Shown: positions 13,012 to 20,598 of the stretch, one piece after another
Position numbering within the stretch: the stretch's first letter is position 1
Layout of the letters: each line of letters opens with the position of its first letter
Made by a program: the position numbers and the translations under genes
From: an uncultured Candidatus Saccharibacteria bacterium
Lineage (GTDB): Bacteria; Patescibacteriota; Minisyncoccia; Phycocordibacterales; CAIRYW01
Reading direction: 5' to 3'
Length of the DNA stretch: 64,000 nucleotides
Assembly (NCBI GenBank): GCA_964446625.1
Contig: CAYUPH010000001.1
Location: 70,283 to 134,282, forward strand
Notes under the pieces: model-generated
Databases searched by the model: none
What the model was told of the DNA's origin: nothing
Seen by the model: the letters and a program-made list of their open reading frames with translations, nothing else

Positions 13012-14541
13012 ATGTCATTAAAAATAGTATTCATGCTTCTAGCGGCTGCTGGAGTTGTTGGTGCTGCTCTCGGATACTTCATTCGATACCTTGTTGCTCT
13101 CAGCAAAAAAGGTTCGATTGAGCAGAATCTAAAGCAAGCAATGCTCGATGCTCAGGAAGAAGCAAAGAAAATCACTCTGAGCGCTGAACACGAAGCAGCA
13201 GAAATTCTCAAAACAGCGCGCGAAGATATTCGTGAAAAAGAAGAGAAGATCAAAAAGACTGAAGACAGATTGGTTGCAAAAGAAGAGCTTCTCGACAAGA
13301 GACAGACTGATATCGACAAAGAGGTTGATTCTCTCAAACTAAAAATTGAGGAAATCAAACAGAAAAAAGAAAAAGTGGACGGCATGGAAGCGACCAAAAT
13401 CGCTGAGCTTCAGAAAATTGCAAAACTTTCAGAAGAAGAAGCGCGACAAAAGCTTCTCCTTGATATCGAAAGAAAATACGAAGAGGATCTTGTTGTTCGG
13501 ATGAAAAAGATGGACACAACAAACCTTGAGAAACTCGAAACAAGAGCAAAAGAAATCCTCACGACTTCAATCCAAAGATTTGCTAACTCTGTGAGCGCAG
13601 ATGTTTTCACTACATCAATCACAATTCCTAGTGACGAACTGAAAGGAAAGATTATTGGAAAAGAAGGCCGAAATATAAAGGCTTTTGAAAGAGAGACAGG
13701 GGTTGAGATTATTGTCGACGACACACCAGGAACCATTACAATCTCATGCCACGATCCAATCCGAAGACAAGTTGCACGACTTGCGCTCGAAAACCTTATC
13801 CTCGATGGACGAATCCAACCAGCAAAGATTGAAAAGGAAGTAGAAAAGGCAAAAACAGAAATCAACAAAATCATCAAAGAAAAAGGAGAGCAAGCAACAT
13901 ACGAAACAGGTGTGTTCAATCTTGATCCTCGAGTTGTTGCAATTCTTGGACGACTCTACTTTAGAACAAGCTACGGACAAAATGTTCTTCAACACTCTGT
14001 TGAAATGGCTCATGTAGCAGGAATGATCGCTCAAGAAATTGGTGCAAACGTTCAAGTATCCAAAGCTGGTGCACTCCTCCATGATATTGGAAAAGCACTC
14101 GACCACGAAGTACAAGGAACACACGTCGAAATCGGACGAAGAATTCTGCAGAAGTTCGGAGTAAGCGAAGAAGTCGTAAAAGCAATGCAAGCTCACCACG
14201 AAGAATATCCTTACGAAACTCTAGAGTCACGAATTGTGCAGTCTGCCGATGCGATTTCAGGAAGTCGTCCTGGAGCTCGCCGAGATAGTGTCGAAAACTA
14301 TTTGAAGCGACTAGGAGACCTTGAAGCAATTGCAAACGGATTCAAAGGAATCGACAAGAGCTATGCGCTCCAGGCAGGACGAGAAATCCGTGTATTTGTA
14401 ACCCCCTCAGAAATTTCTGATCTTGAAGCAGCAAATATTGCTAGAGAGATTGCTCTAAAGATAGAAGCTGAACTAAAGTATCCTGGAGAAATCAAAGTCA
14501 CAGTGATACGAGAAAACAGAATCGTAGAATACGCAAGATAA
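13012..14541 (+). CDS. rny: Ribonuclease Y
   Basis: N-terminal TM, coiled coil, KH domain (GKIIGKEGRNIKAFE) and HD domain (LLHDIGKAL). Confidence 0.93.
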   Translation: MSLKIVFMLLAAAGVVGAALGYFIRYLVALSKKGSIEQNLKQAMLDAQEEAKKITLSAEHEAAEILKTAREDIREKEEKIKKTEDRLVAKEELLDKRQTDIDKEVDSLKLKIEEIKQKKEKVDGMEATKIAELQKIAKLSEEEARQKLLLDIERKYEEDLVVRMKKMDTTNLEKLETRAKEILTTSIQRFANSVSADVFTTSITIPSDELKGKIIGKEGRNIKAFERETGVEIIVDDTPGTITISCHDPIRRQVARLALENLILDGRIQPAKIEKEVEKAKTEINKIIKEKGEQATYETGVFNLDPRVVAILGRLYFRTSYGQNVLQHSVEMAHVAGMIAQEIGANVQVSKAGALLHDIGKALDHEVQGTHVEIGRRILQKFGVSEEVVKAMQAHHEEYPYETLESRIVQSADAISGSRPGARRDSVENYLKRLGDLEAIANGFKGIDKSYALQAGREIRVFVTPSEISDLEAANIAREIALKIEAELKYPGEIKVTVIRENRIVEYAR

Positions 14542-15592: not shown

Positions 15593-16684
15593 ATGGAACT
15601 ACTAAAGTCAGGAATTTCGGGAACACTCATTTTTGTTCTCTCTTTTCTTGGCTGGAATGTAGAGGAAACAAAAACTCCTCTCCCCGAAACTCCCCCTGGA
15701 AAACAAAAAACTGAAAAGATTATCGAAACACCTGTCTTGCCAAAAAAACAGATTCCACCTCAGCCAAAGACTCCAGAGAAACCGTGGGTAGTACCAACAA
15801 AAACACTTCAAACAGAAACCCAAACTCCAGAACCCTTTACTAGAGCAGAAGAGGTAAATAAAGAAACAAACAGTAATTCAAAAAAGTATGACAAAGAAGC
15901 AGTTGCAAATATTCTTTGCGGAGAAAGAATTGGAAGCCAAATCAAATACCACACAGGGAGCGCTGTTGCAATTTCAAATGAAGGAGTTCTGATTACAAAT
16001 GCACACGTAGCCGAGTATGTACTCCTCTCAGAATTTGGAGGTAGCGACTTCTTTTGTGAAGTGAGAGCCGGGTCCCCCGCTTCTCCTGCTTACAAGGCAA
16101 AAATGCTTTTTATGCCGTCTCTTTGGATAAATGCAAACAAAAATAATTTAAAATATGATTCGCTTTCAGGAACTGGTGAAAATGATTACGCTCTCATCTA
16201 CCTTTCAGAAAAAACAAAAAACTCTACTTCTTCTCTTCTTCCTACAGAAATTAACTTATCTGGAATAACTAAAAATCAAAATATCTTTATCTCTGCCTAC
16301 CCTGCTGGTTTTTCAAGTACAAATATTCTTCTGTCTTCTCTAAGCAAAGCAAATACAAATTCAAAAATAAAAAGCATATGGCCACTTGGTAGCGCAAGAA
16401 GTGCAGTTTTTGATACCGAGCCAACACTCCTTGCAGCGGGAGGTGCGTCAGGAGGAGGAATTTTTGCTGGCTCTCAGCTTATTGGAATCATTGGTGCGGT
16501 TGTTATAGATAAAGAAACAACAAAACCTGCTATACGAGGAATTTCTCTTGAGTATATTTCTAATCAAATTAAAAGCGAAAGCGACAAAGAACTTTCTGAA
16601 TTTCTAAAAAATCCAGAAAGCACTGCGGGTAAATTTAAGTCTGATTTTGAGAAGTATACAAAAACCCTTCTTACAAACCGATAG
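15593..16684 (+). CDS. Trypsin-like (S1/Trypsin_2) serine protease, membrane-anchored with Pro/Thr-rich linker
   Basis: N-terminal TM, TNAHV (His), DYALI (Asp) and GASGGG (Ser) triad context. Confidence 0.6.
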   Translation: MELLKSGISGTLIFVLSFLGWNVEETKTPLPETPPGKQKTEKIIETPVLPKKQIPPQPKTPEKPWVVPTKTLQTETQTPEPFTRAEEVNKETNSNSKKYDKEAVANILCGERIGSQIKYHTGSAVAISNEGVLITNAHVAEYVLLSEFGGSDFFCEVRAGSPASPAYKAKMLFMPSLWINANKNNLKYDSLSGTGENDYALIYLSEKTKNSTSSLLPTEINLSGITKNQNIFISAYPAGFSSTNILLSSLSKANTNSKIKSIWPLGSARSAVFDTEPTLLAAGGASGGGIFAGSQLIGIIGAVVIDKETTKPAIRGISLEYISNQIKSESDKELSEFLKNPESTAGKFKSDFEKYTKTLLTNR

Positions 16685-16982
16685 ATTTTTTTGCAAATTC
16701 ATTTGCAATTTTTATGGCCGTCTCAAAATTGTCTTCAGAAACTAAAGTGTTCCGCCTTATGTGTCCGCACTTCTCGCACTTTTGAACCACAAAAAAATCC
16801 TGCCTGTCTTTTTGAACCTCTATAGGAATCATCATTCCCCCGCAATCTTCTGCTCTGTCCCCAGGATCTACATCGACATGTTTTGAATACAAACAATTCG
16901 GACAATGGTTAGTAAAACCGTTGCCTTTTACCTTTTCTCCGCAATGTTCGCACACAAAATCTTCGACAGTTTTTTTGAACAT
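16671..16982 (-). CDS. RNHCP-domain zinc-ribbon protein
   Basis: CEHCGEK...FTNHCPNC...CEKCGH Cys pairs. Start set at MFKKTVEDF (16982) because the longer track ORF would run through the upstream terminator hairpin. Confidence 0.55.
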   Translation of the reverse strand: MFKKTVEDFVCEHCGEKVKGNGFTNHCPNCLYSKHVDVDPGDRAEDCGGMMIPIEVQKDRQDFFVVQKCEKCGHIRRNTLVSEDNFETAIKIANEFAKKSIGL

Positions 16983-17001
16983 GTAATAAAATATATCATA
17001 A

Positions 17002-17048
17002 GTAATAAAATCAAAAATGGGTCGCGCCGGTCCGAAGACCTGCGCGAC
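17002..17048 (-). terminator. GC-rich intrinsic terminator ending the GC-rich island gene
   Basis: On the minus strand, GGGTCGCGCAGGTCTTCGGACCGGCGCGACCC is followed by ATTTTTGATTTTATT. Confidence 0.65.
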
Positions 17049-17056
17049 CCATCGAG

Positions 17057-18142
17057 TCACACTTTCCTAATTGCGCTGCAGGGAAACCTATCGCCCTCCC
17101 TACTCACCTGGAGAGCAATCACTTCCCCCGGATCGAAGTTGGGCAACAACCCGAGATTAAGCAGCTTTTTACCGCTCTCATCCTGCGCTTGCTGGTGATG
17201 AATGAGGGTAACTTCCCCTCTAAATTCCCCGTCTTCAATGACAGCCATGCCGGCTCCACCCAGCCACGGAAAATTGTAGAAGATAACCCTCGCCTTCACG
17301 AAGCCAGCATTGCGGAGTTCCTCCGAAACCGGGTCGAAGACCCCAAAACGATCTGTCCCCCCTGTTAGGAGTCGGCCCCAGTCAGCCCGGATAGCTTTCG
17401 AGAAGGGAATTGTGGCGTTATTTGCCACCGCCCACTTCAGGACCGCATCACCGAAGTTCTTCACATAATCCACTGTCGGAAATGCGTTTTCGTCCCGGGT
17501 TGGAACCGCAAAGACTGCATGATGTCCGCTCTGGTAATACTGCCTTCTTGCAGTGCGACAAATGGCAGGGTTCGTTCTTGTCACTTGTCCCCAGTATGTT
17601 TCCTGGAGGGTAACAAAAACCTTTCCTGCACAACCGAGGACGGACACCTCGATGTGAACAAATCTACCGTCAGTGCGAATCAGCACAAACGCAAGGTCTT
17701 TTTGGACCCCGCTTTTGTGTGCCTGGGGAATTTGGATCCCCCTAACGTCTTCCGCCCACTGGAGAGGGACACCGTAGTCCCCGAGCCGCAAAGGGTCGAC
17801 CTCAAGCAATCGAGATTGACCTGACTTGAATGCCCCCCGAAGTAGTGAAACCCCGAGCTTGGGGTTTGCCTGAAATCTGAGGTTTATCCCCCTAACGTTG
17901 GGAACAGCAGACACCTCCGACCACATGGATGTGGCAGAAAATGAACAATCTGTAAGCGAAGCGTTCTGGTCGGGTGAGCGGTTGTCCACCGCGACCTCGA
18001 ATTCTCCAAAGTCAGGGTGCACCCACTTCATCACCTGGTGAGTGGTGGAGAGGGGCACCCAGTTCGTAGAAGTCTCGCAAGGGACAGGAGGTTCACCTGC
18101 ATCAAGTCCTGCTTTGACAAGCAGGTCGTAAAGGTTGGTCAT
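17057..18142 (-). CDS. Hypothetical protein in an anomalously GC-rich (about 55-58% GC) gene; probable horizontal acquisition
   Basis: 361-aa ORF from MTNLYDLLVKAGLD. GC of 60-nt samples is 52-58%, against 32-38% in the flanks. No family recognised. Confidence 0.55.
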   Translation of the reverse strand: MTNLYDLLVKAGLDAGEPPVPCETSTNWVPLSTTHQVMKWVHPDFGEFEVAVDNRSPDQNASLTDCSFSATSMWSEVSAVPNVRGINLRFQANPKLGVSLLRGAFKSGQSRLLEVDPLRLGDYGVPLQWAEDVRGIQIPQAHKSGVQKDLAFVLIRTDGRFVHIEVSVLGCAGKVFVTLQETYWGQVTRTNPAICRTARRQYYQSGHHAVFAVPTRDENAFPTVDYVKNFGDAVLKWAVANNATIPFSKAIRADWGRLLTGGTDRFGVFDPVSEELRNAGFVKARVIFYNFPWLGGAGMAVIEDGEFRGEVTLIHHQQAQDESGKKLLNLGLLPNFDPGEVIALQVSREGDRFPCSAIRKV

Positions 18143-18375
18143 AATAGCAAAAGTGTGTCGAAGAACAAAATGCCGTAGGTTACGGCAGGAGGTTTTGGTA
18201 CGCAACGGCGCCCTAGCTCTCACAATTCTTCTAGCTTCCAAGCTAGTTGAACTTTCTTTCCGCAACACGGTTGAAACTTTTATATTATAACATAGTTTAT
18301 ATAAAAATCAAGTACGATTATATTAGTGATTTTCAGTCTATAAAATATCTTAAATATTGTGCTATGCTTTTATTT

Positions 18376-20598
18376 ATGGATGAAAGCTACAATTCACAAA
18401 AAATAGAACAAAAAGTTTTAGAATTATGGAATACTGCCAACTTCTTCAATCAAACTCCTAGTAATTCAAAACCAAATATTGGACTCTTCCTGACTCCTCC
18501 AAACGCCAGTGGAGCCATGCATACGGGAAATGCTTTAATGATTGCTATTCAAGACATAATTGCTCGATATTATCGCTCGCAAGGTAGCCCAACAGTTTGG
18601 ATTCCAGGCACAGACCATGGTGGCTATGAAACAGAAATAACTTTCGAAAAAGAATTTGAAAAACAAGGTTTTAAAAAAGACACTTTTTCAAAAAGAGAAA
18701 TTTTTAACAAGATTCATGATTTTGTTCACAGTAATAACAAACTTATTTATAACCAAATAAAGAGATTGGGTGCAAGCGTAGATTGGACAAAGGTTCGTTT
18801 TACAATGGATGATGATTTTTCTAAAAAAACCCAAGATGTTTTTAAGAAAATGGTTTCTGAAAACCTCATATCAAAGAAAAATGTAATGAATCATTTTTGT
18901 CCTGTCTGTTCCACAACACTTTCTGATATAGAACTAAAAGAGCAAAAAGGCGCAAATCAATATTTTATTAAATTCGATTTGATGGATTCAGAAAACGAAC
19001 AAGTCACTTTACTAGTAAAAAGGCCTGAATTTCTTTTTTCTGTCTCAAAAGTACTCGTTCACCCAAGTGATTCTATACACTCCTATTTAATTGGAAAAAA
19101 ACTTAGGAACCCACTTACAAAAGAGGAGATTCAAGTTATAGAAAGTGAGAGAAAGCATGATCCAGATAACACCTCACCTCTCACGCCTTTTTGTGACTCA
19201 TTCGTGAAGTATGACTACGAATACGCGCTTATGCGAAACATTCCTGTTTTTGGAAAGAATTTAATTGACCTAAAAGGTAAAATGAATTTTAGGCACATTG
19301 GAGATAGTACCCAAATTGCCAGAGAAAAAGATTTAAGTATCTTAAAAGCGGAAGGAAGATTAGTAGATACTATCTTTTCAGAGAACGAAAATATTTTTGT
19401 GTGTAAAAAAGGTCACGAAACGGAAACTTACTTAACCATGACATGGATTTTAGACCTAGATCATCCAAATCGCTCCTTAAAAAAAGAAGCTCTTTTGGCA
19501 TTAGAAGAAAACCCTCTCAATGTGGTGCCTAGCTGGAGAAAGAGAGAGATTATAAAATATATAGATTTAATGCGCGCTTGGCCAATCGCTCGTCAAAATG
19601 TATGGGGGATCTCTATCCCTGTTTGGTACGATATATCTTCTCCCTCAGATTTTGAAGTTTGGTTTGAGGATAAAAACAGAGAAAAACACAATGGTAATCT
19701 TGAAGAGTTACTGCGTAAGTATTCTCTTTCCGAAATCTCAGAAGGTCTGGAGAAAATTTATACTTCTAAAGAGAATAATTGGGTTTTTGAAAAAGAAAAC
19801 GGAAAAGAATACTTACCAGAAACAGATGTTTTTGACACATGGTTTTCTTCAGTTTGGTGGGGAATTTTTGTTTTCGAAAATATTTCTTCGTTTACAAAAG
19901 ATGACTTTTACCCTGCCCAAACTACTGTAACTGGAAGCGATTTAATTAGATTGTCTATTTCCAGAAAAATTGTACTCGGTTACTACCTTACAAGGAAGAT
20001 TCCGTTTAGCAATATTTGCTTTAACCCAATCATCAATGGTCCTGATGGAAACAAAATGAGCAAGAGTTATGGAAATGTCATTCCTCTTGAATCTTACCTA
20101 GATAAATACGGCACTGATATTACCCGTCTTTCCCTTGTATCATATACACGTGAAGGTAAGGATTTTAGTATCGAGCTTGAAACTCTCCAAAACTACAGTA
20201 GGTTCATGGATATTCTATGGAAAATGGGTAAAATAGCTGATATTGCAAAGAAATTTGCGCCAAACTTTAATAAAGCAATTTGTGTAGATAAATATTGCAA
20301 AAAGGTTATGGAAGATACTGCAGCTCTCGAGGAAAATGTGGGGAATAAAATAAAAAGTTTCAATTTAGCATATGCCCAAGAACTGGTGACTGGTTTTGTG
20401 TTGGATTTAGAAGAGTTTGCTAATTCTATTCAGACAAGTTCCACAAAGGAAGAATATCTATCGGTTTTTAAGTATGTGTTTGAAAAATATTTATTCATTC
20501 TTCATCCCTTCGCCCCTTTTGTAACTGAATATATCTATAATTCTATATATACGAAAGAAACACCACTTGCTTTACAAGCGAAAGTGGAAGCTATTTAG
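18376..20598 (+). CDS. valS: Class I aminoacyl-tRNA synthetase, most likely valine--tRNA ligase (short form)
   Basis: PPNASGAMHTGNAL (HIGH-region variant most similar to the ValRS PPNVTGSLHMGHAL) and KMSKS (KMSKSYGNV). Start uncertain (18364 or 18376); the track N-terminus from 18247 is spurious. Confidence 0.65.
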   Translation: MDESYNSQKIEQKVLELWNTANFFNQTPSNSKPNIGLFLTPPNASGAMHTGNALMIAIQDIIARYYRSQGSPTVWIPGTDHGGYETEITFEKEFEKQGFKKDTFSKREIFNKIHDFVHSNNKLIYNQIKRLGASVDWTKVRFTMDDDFSKKTQDVFKKMVSENLISKKNVMNHFCPVCSTTLSDIELKEQKGANQYFIKFDLMDSENEQVTLLVKRPEFLFSVSKVLVHPSDSIHSYLIGKKLRNPLTKEEIQVIESERKHDPDNTSPLTPFCDSFVKYDYEYALMRNIPVFGKNLIDLKGKMNFRHIGDSTQIAREKDLSILKAEGRLVDTIFSENENIFVCKKGHETETYLTMTWILDLDHPNRSLKKEALLALEENPLNVVPSWRKREIIKYIDLMRAWPIARQNVWGISIPVWYDISSPSDFEVWFEDKNREKHNGNLEELLRKYSLSEISEGLEKIYTSKENNWVFEKENGKEYLPETDVFDTWFSSVWWGIFVFENISSFTKDDFYPAQTTVTGSDLIRLSISRKIVLGYYLTRKIPFSNICFNPIINGPDGNKMSKSYGNVIPLESYLDKYGTDITRLSLVSYTREGKDFSIELETLQNYSRFMDILWKMGKIADIAKKFAPNFNKAICVDKYCKKVMEDTAALEENVGNKIKSFNLAYAQELVTGFVLDLEEFANSIQTSSTKEEYLSVFKYVFEKYLFILHPFAPFVTEYIYNSIYTKETPLALQAKVEAI

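Follow-up and report, generated by a model that had tools for sequence, protein, structure and literature searches.

The window analysed here, a stretch of 64,000 nucleotides, contains a GC-rich island at positions 17002–18246, with a GC content of 53.4% (0.534) against 38.6% elsewhere (z about 6). Its ORF, designated gene X (17057–18142), reaches 0.539, and the left (16000–17001) and right (18278–19277) flanks have values of 0.375 and 0.322, respectively. Sliding windows of 1,086 and 1,245 nt across the whole 64 kb peak over the island at 0.547 and 0.537, whereas the same windows outside it average 0.386 (sd 0.025–0.026) and reach a maximum of 0.46. GC at the three codon positions of X is 0.605, 0.434, and 0.577, the last of these lying well outside the range of 0.21–0.43 found in the 46 other long ORFs of the window, of which the highest is ClpP at just 0.43. 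The GC-rich, one-gene island put forward in a preliminary description of this DNA is therefore borne out by window GC, GC3, and codon usage alike, albeit the leader upstream of the ORF has a GC content of 0.47, not 52%–58% as had been stated, with the DNA flanking it at 0.23–0.32.

The compositional step is sharp at both ends, with AT-rich genes 66–120 nt away. Such steps could also be produced by an assembly or binning chimera, or by contamination, but the chance of this is negligible: three assemblies made independently from different samples share these junctions (two at 100% identity and one at 98.8%; L001, L002, and L003, respectively), homologous genes fill the same slot elsewhere, and the promoter and terminator T-tract are continuous with the backbone.

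Table 1. Features of the gene X transcription unit and the adjoining backbone gene (positions in the window).
Feature	Position	Strand	Description
Sigma-70-type promoter of gene X	18284..18311	-	-35 TTGATT, 16-nt spacer, TG-extended -10 TATAAT
5′ leader of gene X	18143..18277	-	about 130 nt, GC 0.47, two short hairpins
Gene X	17057..18142	-	361 aa, predicted two-domain cytoplasmic protein; ATG at 18142, TGA stop 17057–17059
N-terminal region of X, residues 1–275	17318..18142	-	all-beta domain (about residues 25–215), then helical linker, as modelled by AlphaFold
C-terminal cold-shock-like OB-fold domain, residues 281–361	17060..17302	-	predicted from Foldseek and the family profile
Intrinsic terminator of gene X	17005..17052	-	16-bp G+C-rich stem, UUCG loop, T-tract
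RNHCP zinc-ribbon gene	16671..16982	-	downstream backbone gene outside the island; true start ATG 16982, 103 aa

Promoter, leader, ORF, and terminator all lie on the minus strand and together make the island a single, self-contained, monocistronic unit of transcription (Table 1). The promoter scores 10/12 in a consensus scan, in addition to its TG extension, and aligns with the promoter of the X homologue in genome L007; it is part of the AT-rich backbone and lies outside the GC-rich unit. Two short hairpins are found in the leader, at 18231–18246 (CTAGCTT..AAGCTAG) and 18171–18187 (TGCCGTA..TACGGCA), the second of which resembles a terminator or attenuator because it is followed by TTTTGTTCTT. 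This leader is weakly structured overall (dG -36.6, z -1.57). Leaders of relatives, at 110–150 nt, have z values of -4.3 to -5.8, and in most family members the leader starts with a short unpaired stretch and then forms a near-perfect hairpin of 20–23 bp; the window copy has neither the long hairpin nor the CTTTGAAA motif. The leaders of relatives also carry a CUUUGAAA element. Rfam yields only chance-level matches (E > 1) across 16000–19500, which covers leader and gene body, and in the whole window the gathering score is reached by four tRNAs alone, none of them in the island.

The public gene call for X starts further upstream, at GTG 18268, and gives 403 aa; its 42 extra, arginine-rich residues overlap the leader and are missing in homologues. 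Shine–Dalgarno-like motifs occur at background frequency in the genomes studied. At the 3′ end, the terminator that the preliminary description had assigned to the gene is confirmed: the stem arms (17017–17032 and 17037–17052) are 94% complementary, fold with a dG of -31.1 kcal/mol (z -6.96), and are followed by AUUUUUGAUUUU. This terminator falls within the N-terminal extension of a long, 129-aa version of the RNHCP ORF, in which the Pfam match (PF12647, E = 2e-27) begins only at residue 33, and RNHCP homologues begin at MFKK. The overlap between X and the long ORF had rightly been suspected of being spurious, although it reads GTGA (GTG 17060–17058, TGA 17059–17057) and not ATGA.

Single-sequence searches of the X protein against Pfam, NCBIfam, PHROGs, PADLOC, and the PDB give no match—in Pfam, 0 families even at E = 1—and at that level the earlier statement that it fits no recognisable family is correct. 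An exhaustive search of 1.84 billion representative proteins recovers 57 distant relatives at 25%–38% identity, the best non-self match having 38% identity across a fragment and 32% across the full length. A word-indexed search of 5.8 billion proteins returns nothing but the X protein itself, and a search of 2.9 million viral contigs with the family motif returns no X relatives. From the X sequence alone, AlphaFold gives an uninformative model (pLDDT 34); once relatives are supplied, the model is confident (pLDDT 89.9, pTM 0.89).

In that model, the C-terminal domain is an OB-fold barrel (pLDDT about 95), which Foldseek matches to CspE, CspA, CspB, YBX, and Lin28 with a probability of 1.0 and target TM-scores of 0.65–0.78 (0.73–0.78, rmsd 2.8–3.8, for the three Csps). 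The family profile finds cold-shock proteins in the PDB at E = 4e-11, and PF00313 is detected in 26 of 54 relatives (E ≤ 0.1), but not in the window protein, whose membership of the cold-shock domain (CSD) group therefore holds at the level of family and fold only. The nucleic-acid-binding motifs of CSDs are RNP1 (K/R-G-F/Y-G-F-I) and RNP2 (V-F-V-H-F). The consensus of the X family reads G[YF]GF and FVHF, whereas the window copy reads GAGMAV and TLIHH; most aromatic residues are gone from these degenerate motifs, and nucleic-acid binding by the window copy is thus uncertain. The N-terminal region is without detectable relative outside the family: Foldseek gives no significant match in the PDB or among viral models, and a profile of this region alone finds no PDB sequence. 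Its conserved positions include G159, R171, Q180, G185, P214, P222, and W255, and invariant catalytic-type residues were not seen in it. One relative is a fusion of SUI1/YciH with X. As modelled, X represents a previously unnamed, hyperdivergent, two-domain family that combines a beta-rich N-terminal region with a CSD, and its role is probably linked to RNA or translation.

The C-terminal 80 residues of X model as the same CSD barrel as bacterial CspA and CspB (PF00313). Csps are, however, highly conserved single-domain proteins of 70 aa, whereas the 361 aa of X include about 275 N-terminal residues of unrelated sequence, and its alleles are hyperdivergent; the failure of the window protein against the Pfam CSD model and its degenerate RNP motifs set it further apart. 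In Staphylococcus aureus, RNase III processing of a long 5′ hairpin in the cspA mRNA stabilises the message and raises its translation (PMC3386247), and most X family leaders likewise carry a long 5′ hairpin, with the difference that in X the entire coding region, not the leader alone, is over-folded and GC-shifted. Y-box proteins, Lin28, and Unr offer an analogy only, in that they carry a CSD as an RNA-binding module on other domains: the structural matches of the X CSD include the CSDs of YBX2, YB-1, and Lin28, but X has no homology to these proteins outside the CSD and its partner domain is a different one.

All genomic contexts of the family that were examined are Patescibacteria (Paceibacteria-like) genomes, judged either by a Paceibacterota or Taylorbacteria name or by housekeeping neighbours of the kind seen in reduced CPR genomes. 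The X slot lies within the region UPF0102 ... RNHCP–trypsin–HU–RNaseY–ClpP, and the same chromosomal slot, either adjoining RNHCP or lying between it and UPF0102, holds X homologues in at least five other genomes (L007, L097, L098, L099, and L101) that share the wider gene order. RNHCP anchors the synteny of the slot in all of these but L098; X is directly upstream of it in the window, L007, and L101, and the order X–ATPgrasp–hydrolase–RNHCP is found in L097 and L099. Further upstream, the order integrase–ExoEndoPhos–CCA–NUDIX–UPF0102 is common to L007, L097, L098, and L101. The label 'MYG1-like' for a neighbouring gene of ~350 aa was dropped for lack of Pfam support. Presence of X among genomes is patchy: 80 related species lack it in the 10 kb around RNase Y, and in four of them UPF0102 directly abuts RNHCP and gives the look of an empty site.

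The GC-rich composition of X recurs throughout the family. At 13/13 loci, X is GC-richer than the genes of its host, by 4 to 17 points, and this extends to hosts with 52%–56% GC; even in three of the four GC-rich hosts, X has the top GC3. Averaged over the 12 loci with three or more other ORFs, X exceeds its host by 10.8 points in GC and 21 points in GC3, and the GC3 excess ranges from 11 to 35 points. The relationship fits X_GC = 0.325 + 0.518 × host_GC (r = 0.82), by which X would equal its host only at a host GC of about 0.675, above any sampled Paceibacterium. It is about as likely as not that the high GC is inherent in the gene family and is not the scar of a single recent import. Two other causes were rejected. 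Translational selection or high expression is contradicted by the doubling of both C3 and G3 in X and by the GC3 of ClpP, as well as by L100, in which ribosomal protein L19 is host-like (GC3 0.39) and X stands at 0.75. Adenine-specific mutagenesis of the kind performed by diversity-generating retroelements (DGRs) was considered because A3 is halved and T3 barely altered in X of AT-rich hosts; it fails in that X has the base composition of ordinary genes in GC-rich Paceibacteria and is identical between strains.

That composition would also suit the explanation favoured by the preliminary description, namely that the gene was acquired horizontally and recently. The donor would have been GC-richer, most plausibly another Paceibacterium of about 50% GC, and the composition of the gene as yet unadjusted to the host. 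All three codon positions are GC-shifted, and codon usage lies closest to Paceibacteria with 47%–53% GC, the host itself ranking 29th of 68. Most horizontal transfer in Patescibacteria is reported to take place within the phylum (PMC12455944), which agrees with such a donor. The survey of relatives cuts both ways, with the absence of X near RNase Y and the apparent empty sites speaking for an import and the filled slot and conserved gene order in at least five other genomes against a recent one. Like classical islands, X stands out sharply in composition, has unusual codon usage, and is patchily distributed; unlike them, it is a single gene without mobility genes, adjacent tRNA, or flanking repeats. 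No integrase adjoins X in any of the 13 loci; the closest tyrosine recombinase, at a distance of 9.4 kb, is an Xer-like gene of the conserved backbone that is syntenic in relatives; 1.5 kb and two genes separate the island from the closest tRNA; and repeats flanking the island amount to short chance matches, so that the earlier claim of no flanking integrase or repeat stands. Horizontally acquired DNA is, moreover, usually AT-richer than its host, whereas X is GC-richer, and the anomaly recurs in every family member examined and in a conserved slot. With no homologue above 38% identity among the 1.84 billion representatives, the search for a donor yields no candidate. Lastly, identical X genes are shared by strains that have recombined the trypsin-like gene, which lies two genes from X and shows 6% divergence between them.

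The family shares a second property: all 13 X mRNAs are more stably folded than shuffled controls. Dinucleotide shuffles give a mean z of -1.13 in X compared with -0.10 in flanking genes (p = 8e-16) and, in GC-rich hosts, -1.31 compared with -0.04 in GC-matched host genes. Against synonymous-codon shuffles, z lies between -2.1 and -6.3 in 13/13 X genes (mean -3.86), with a mean of -0.05 for controls (p = 4e-5), and block-local synonymous shuffles give means of -2.68 and -0.10, respectively (p = 6e-5). The sense strand of X also folds more than the antisense (-1.20 versus -0.77, paired p = 4e-5). Within the window, minus-strand z averages -1.72 inside the island and -0.35 outside it. A foreign composition would not by itself make an mRNA fold more stably than its synonymous shuffles, and this, together with the shared slot, the GC excess at every locus, the missing donor, and the identity between strains, leaves the earlier verdict of a 'likely recent horizontal acquisition' unsupported as stated; such an event is unlikely.

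GC-biased gene conversion at a recombination hotspot, by which AT-to-GC changes would be fixed and alleles turn over rapidly with no selection on RNA, would account for a GC excess that is most pronounced at third codon positions and scales with the GC of the host. It would also suit an allele similarity independent of host relatedness and a recombination tract next door. It is nonetheless very unlikely. A shift of +11 to +35 GC3 points is, to our knowledge, far beyond what such conversion has been credited with in bacteria; the excess stops sharply at the limits of a single transcription unit, with AT-rich genes in its immediate vicinity; and gene conversion predicts neither the over-folding relative to block-local synonymous shuffles nor the gap between sense and antisense.

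X alleles appear to turn over quickly within boundaries that follow the transcript. Pairwise identities between X proteins form a flat plateau of 26%–42%, and allele similarity is out of step with host relatedness: in the sister genomes L097 and L098, X is 32% identical, compared with 93% for CCA, 88% for the integrase, and 77% for UPF0102. DNA homology ends just past the promoter motif and picks up again at the terminator T-tract, with homology to L007 resuming at window position 17016, right after the terminator stem. A palindromic -35 element, TTGACTTTTTGTCAA, together with CTTTGAAA, is identical ahead of X in L097 and L098 and is also found ahead of an unrelated GC-rich ORF of 246 aa in L010; L009 and L010 have non-homologous GC-rich genes behind the same promoter. 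In L009 and L040, the position upstream of RNHCP is held by GC-rich versions (24%–27% identical) of a native gene.

These observations raise the alternative of a dedicated variable expression slot, in which promoterless cassettes (each a leader hairpin, an ORF, and a terminator) from a GC-rich pool are swapped behind a conserved promoter and CTTTGAAA, in the manner of an integron or of a hotspot for defence or variable genes, with X taking part in conflicts with phages or hosts. Divergence boundaries that coincide with transcript ends, the promoter elements shared between diverged X alleles and the unrelated ORF of L010, the GC-rich versions of a native gene in L009 and L040, patchy distribution, flat allele identities, and the recombination tract that adjoins the island are all in keeping with it. 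As in integron cassettes, a conserved promoter is followed by a variable single-ORF unit ending in a hairpin, with non-homologous ORFs behind the same promoter in different genomes. However, X loci have no integron integrase, and the only tyrosine recombinase nearby is the Xer-like backbone gene already described; the 3′ hairpins of the family are ordinary terminators that share no sequence, attC-like or otherwise; and the slot never holds more than one cassette. A defence role draws on the PADLOC CSD_V model, matched by 11/54 relatives (best E = 2.8e-8), since retron type V effectors include a CSD protein. The matches nevertheless come from the generic CSD, the window protein has none, no reverse transcriptase Pfam domain is seen among the neighbours of X, and Rfam finds no msr/msd retron RNA. 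The lack of relatives among the viral contigs and the absence of the CTTTGAAA motif from the window copy also count against the dedicated slot, which furthermore leaves unexplained why every cassette exceeds its host in GC and is over-folded. This alternative is unlikely.

A GC excess inherent in the family, which selection for mRNA structure would maintain within a cassette of fast turnover, is the reading we prefer, and we give it about an even chance of being right. Selection would keep the entire X transcript heavily structured, which could make the message of an RNA-binding, possibly translation-associated, protein long-lived or structure-gated. Such selection would oppose the AT-biased mutation of the host and so sustain a persistent GC offset. 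The variable unit would begin directly behind the promoter, extend to the terminator stem, and turn over very fast, either through allele replacement among Paceibacteria or through in-situ diversification. Against selection for structure, the window copy is itself a weak example, with its poorly structured leader, its degenerate RNP motifs, and a z of only -1.78 against block-local synonymous shuffles, 1/40 of which fold as well. Over-folding could also follow from some other process instead of causing the GC excess, and we know of no precedent for structure selection lifting GC3 by 11–35 points. Some horizontal exchange among Paceibacteria is possible because of the mismatch between alleles and hosts, the patchy presence, and the codon usage like that of Paceibacteria with 47%–53% GC; this codon usage, the absence near RNase Y in 80 species, and the genes of L009 and L010 fit an exchange of cassettes.

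More speculatively, and with a fairly low probability of being right, Paceibacteria might possess a hitherto unrecognised class of 'armoured transcript' cassettes: single genes that sit in a conserved promoter/CTTTGAAA slot of an AT-rich genome, whose mRNAs are selected along their full length for high GC and base-pairing, and that are exchanged or diversified as units. The X family would be one member and others, for instance the genes of L009, L010, and L040, would join it. The CSD protein could then sense or unwind its own folded mRNA, giving a structure-gated autoregulation, and the transcript-shaped boundaries would leave room for exchange at the RNA level.

If structure selection does maintain the excess, what looks like a textbook 'horizontally acquired island' can reflect the nature of the gene itself, with a whole family staying GC-rich against the mutational bias of its hosts and the extra G and C serving mRNA folding. 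Should selection of this kind shift GC3 by 10–35 points, composition-based detection of horizontal transfer would wrongly flag such genes, above all in reduced, AT-rich genomes like those of CPR bacteria. The locus also brings to light a new family of predicted two-domain proteins, found here only in CPR genomes and once fused to SUI1, and a conserved expression slot with fast turnover. We know of no cultured representatives of the CPR bacteria concerned, and the X family and its slot may serve as entry points into RNA-level regulation in these organisms.

The GC-rich island is one complete transcription unit on the minus strand, running from a promoter through a leader and the X open reading frame (ORF) to a terminator (see the table). 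GC content is 53.4% across 17002–18246 and 53.9% within the ORF, against 37.5% in the left flank and 32.2% in the right. In sliding windows of 1086 and 1245 nt, the island peaks at 0.547 and 0.537, respectively, while the rest of the window has a mean of 0.386 (sd ~0.025) and a maximum of 0.46, which places the island at z ~6; a 100-nt profile steps sharply near ~17000 and ~18250. Every codon position of X is shifted (GC1/2/3 = 0.605/0.434/0.577), the other 46 long ORFs having a GC3 of 0.21–0.43. The compositional island claimed in the preliminary description is thus confirmed by sliding-window and codon-position checks. Three independent assemblies share these junctions, at 100% identity in L001 and L002 and at 98.8% in L003, which rules out a chimera and leaves an assembly artefact a negligible probability. 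Small orphan genes with GC and GC3 well above those of the host loci also occur at L096 (15426–16202), L100 (9869–10387), and L090 (3299–3808), without Pfam matches except for one at chance level in L096; they suggest that single genes standing out for high GC are a recurring feature of these genomes.

The public gene call for X (403 aa from GTG 18268) is over-extended across 18143–18268, and its extra arginine-rich stretch covers the leader and is found in no homologue; the true start is ATG 18142, giving 361 aa. The public RNHCP call (129 aa from GTG 17060), which overlaps the X stop codon, is over-extended across 16983–17060, since its Pfam match begins at residue 33, its homologues begin MFKK, and the added stretch contains the X terminator; the gene really begins at ATG 16982 (103 aa). 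The preliminary description was therefore right to regard this overlap as spurious, although the 4-nt overlap reads GTGA and not ATGA, and its local anatomy of the unit, including a terminator belonging to X, stands. As it had also stated, no integrase or meaningful repeat was found beside the unit when the flanks were searched. No tRNA flanks the unit, and Rfam gave no match inside it. Across the whole window and loci L004–L101, Shine–Dalgarno-like 4-mers upstream of long ORFs are at or below background (window 9% versus 12%), and Shine–Dalgarno-led initiation is apparently little used in these genomes.

Features and gene orders of the X unit and its comparison loci
Feature	Locus	Position	Strand	Details
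Promoter of X	Window	18311-18284	minus	TTGATT, 16 nt, TG-n-TATAAT
Leader of X	Window	18277-18143	minus	~130 nt, 0.47 GC, two short hairpins; T-run after the second (18187-18171)
X ORF	Window	17057-18142	minus	361 aa, start ATG 18142
Terminator of X	Window	17017-17032 + 17037-17052 (stem arms)	minus	dG -31.1, z -6.96, then AUUUUUGAUUUU
TTGACTTTTTGTCAA promoter	L010	16297-16349	minus	
TTGACTTTTTGTCAA promoter	L097	9846-9897		
TTGACTTTTTGTCAA promoter	L098	9829-9881		
GC-rich gene directly upstream of RNHCP	L009	13009-14295	minus	428 aa
GC-rich gene directly upstream of RNHCP	L040	12479-13396	minus	305 aa
ATP-grasp_3 gene	L004	11217-12692		
ATP-grasp_3 gene	L090	5274-6770		
ATP-grasp_3 gene	L091	5514-6905		
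ATP-grasp_3 gene	L097	11177-12637		
ATP-grasp_3 gene	L099	2194-3582		
ATP-grasp_3 gene	L100	1725-3188		
Gene order	L007			integrase-ExoEndoPhos-CCA-NUDIX-UPF0102-UbiE-valS-X-RNHCP-trypsin-HU-RNaseY-ClpP
Gene order	L101			...UPF0102-UbiE-(362 aa)-X-RNHCP-trypsin
Gene order	L097			...UPF0102-TrmB-(347 aa)-X-ATPgrasp-hydrolase-RNHCP-trypsin-HU-RNaseY-ClpP
Gene order	L099			UPF0102-X-ATPgrasp-(230 aa)-RNHCP-trypsin
Gene order	L098			as L097 up to X, then valS

For the window's RNase Y, the closest-scoring matches lie in Nomura-, Taylor-, and Zambryskibacteria and in Paceibacterota, and the host is a patescibacterium of Paceibacteria type. Genomic context was taken for 12 family members besides the window, and in all 12, X sits amid the kind of housekeeping genes that reduced CPR genomes typically carry, in many cases with the window's wider gene order. 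Given this shared order, X has long occupied one chromosomal slot, yet it is patchily distributed: X is absent within 10 kb of RNase Y in 80/80 related species, in several of which UPF0102 directly adjoins RNHCP. In six loci, an ATP-grasp_3 protein of ~490 aa (49%–68% identical, host-like GC) is encoded directly downstream of X; no homologue occurs anywhere in the 64-kb window. One family protein, P0066 (485 aa, from a 5.4-kb ENA contig), carries an N-terminal SUI1/YciH domain (PF01253, E = 6e-10) ahead of a complete X, a putative fusion that may link the family to translation.

X is GC-richer than host genes in 13/13 loci, each host locus being a short sample of its genome. Where a locus has three or more other ORFs (12 loci), the excess averages +10.8 points of GC (+4 to +17) and +21 points of GC3 (+11 to +35), with X ranking first in nine; among the four GC-rich hosts, X leads in GC3 in three. 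X GC follows host GC (X = 0.325 + 0.518 × host, r = 0.82, p = 6e-4), such that a host of ~67% GC would be needed for X to be compositionally ordinary, while the Paceibacteria sampled here span 31%–56%. Being family-wide, GC-rich hosts included, this excess speaks against mere import from a donor of high GC and favours a force on the gene itself. The recent one-off acquisition originally proposed is not upheld, given a slot shared across genomes and a GC excess in every locus. Recent import from a Paceibacterium of ~50% GC, which the codon usage of the window X fits and which is in keeping with reported horizontal transfer within the phylum Patescibacteria (PMC12455944), is considered unlikely, and GC-biased gene conversion as the source of the excess improbable.

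Pairwise X identities are all 26%–42%, whatever the relatedness of the hosts. Between L097 and L098, for example, CCA, integrase, and UPF0102 are 93%, 88%, and 77% identical, but the X proteins only 32%; the promoter and the DNA leading up to it are 76%–80% identical, X shows no DNA similarity, and homology stops just past a conserved CTTTGAAA motif ~15–25 nt beyond the -10 box. Between the window and L007, homology returns at the T-tract directly after the terminator stem. The variable unit is therefore the transcript body. All X identities lie on a saturation plateau, and either allele replacement or in-situ diversification may underlie the turnover. Within the species, X is stable: of 74 sites differing between L003 and the window, 73 fall in a 1-kb tract (15665–16701) and none in X or valS, and the adjacent 5 kb (X, valS, hyp431) holds one mismatch. 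The tract, comprising the trypsin-like protease gene (15593–16684) and the RNHCP 3′ end, is 6.3% divergent (codon changes: 38 synonymous, 25 non-synonymous) and has the look of a stretch imported by homologous recombination, two genes away from the island.

The same promoter also stands before non-homologous GC-rich genes, a 246-aa orphan in L010 and the 428-aa gene in L009. Its exact palindromic -35 element, the 15-mer TTGACTTTTTGTCAA, occurs at three sites only in 1.5 Mb of loci, each with a -10 box and (G)AAC(C/T)TTGAAA ~15–25 nt downstream and each before a GC-rich cassette (X in L097 and L098, the unrelated 246-aa ORF in L010). The CUUUGA core of the promoter-downstream motif resembles r(GUCUUUA), the Bs-CspB ligand named in PDB entry 3pf4. 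The L009 and L040 genes (GC 0.51–0.53, hosts 0.37–0.44) are 24%–27% identical to, and GC-rich versions of, a native AT-rich gene of ~350 aa that usually lies just upstream of the slot, has an N-terminal THxRPHADE motif, and has no Pfam match. Cassette exchange resembling that of integrons or hotspots, and possibly tied to conflict, could account for such alternation at one promoter, and is likewise rated doubtful, marginally below recent import; the non-X cassettes are over-folded too (z -0.78).

mRNA folding was predicted computationally in sliding 120-nt windows against dinucleotide shuffles. Mean z is -1.13 in eight X genes versus -0.10 in flanking genes (p = 8e-16), and -1.31 for X of GC-rich hosts versus -0.04 for GC-matched host genes. 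Under synonymous-codon permutation, which keeps protein and codon usage fixed, 13/13 X genes are more stable than their shuffles (z -2.1 to -6.3, mean -3.86 versus -0.05 in controls, p = 4e-5), and permutation within 40-codon blocks, controlling local composition, gives -2.68 versus -0.10 (p = 6e-5). Folding is stronger on the sense strand than on the antisense (-1.20 versus -0.77, paired p = 4e-5), and minus-strand z averages -1.72 inside the window's island and -0.35 outside. In most relatives, the leader has a few unpaired bases and then a near-perfect 20–23-bp hairpin (z -4.3 to -5.8), similar to the Staphylococcus aureus cspA leader, in which RNase III processing of the hairpin lifts mRNA half-life to >16 min from <2.5 min and increases translation (PMC3386247). 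The window X is atypical, having no long leader hairpin, no CTTTGAAA motif, degenerate RNP motifs, and a block-local z of just -1.78. The RNase Y coding region (13012–14541) is also over-folded against synonymous shuffles (z -2.9 global, -2.0 block-local), and 120 nt of valS (19700–19819) reach z ~-3.9 on both strands.

The explanation favoured here, at roughly even odds, places the compositional anomaly in the gene itself: the island would hold a member of a Paceibacteria-specific CSD (cold-shock domain) family whose transcript selection would keep heavily base-paired, to make it stable, to gate its expression by structure, or both. Such selection would add a GC offset to the host's mutational baseline, in a unit that would rapidly diversify or be replaced inside a conserved promoter-to-terminator slot. 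Structure selection may have caused the GC excess or may only be its correlate. The CSD, the putative SUI1 fusion, and the cspA-like leader hint at an RNA- or translation-linked role for X. Cold-shock domains and structured csp leaders are already known; no literature was found on the features of the X family, the only paper to bring Patescibacteria and cold-shock domains together being unrelated. What is new is a two-domain, hyperdivergent family in a conserved slot, with CPR genomes in every context examined and, above all, a GC excess coupled family-wide with over-folding of the whole transcript.
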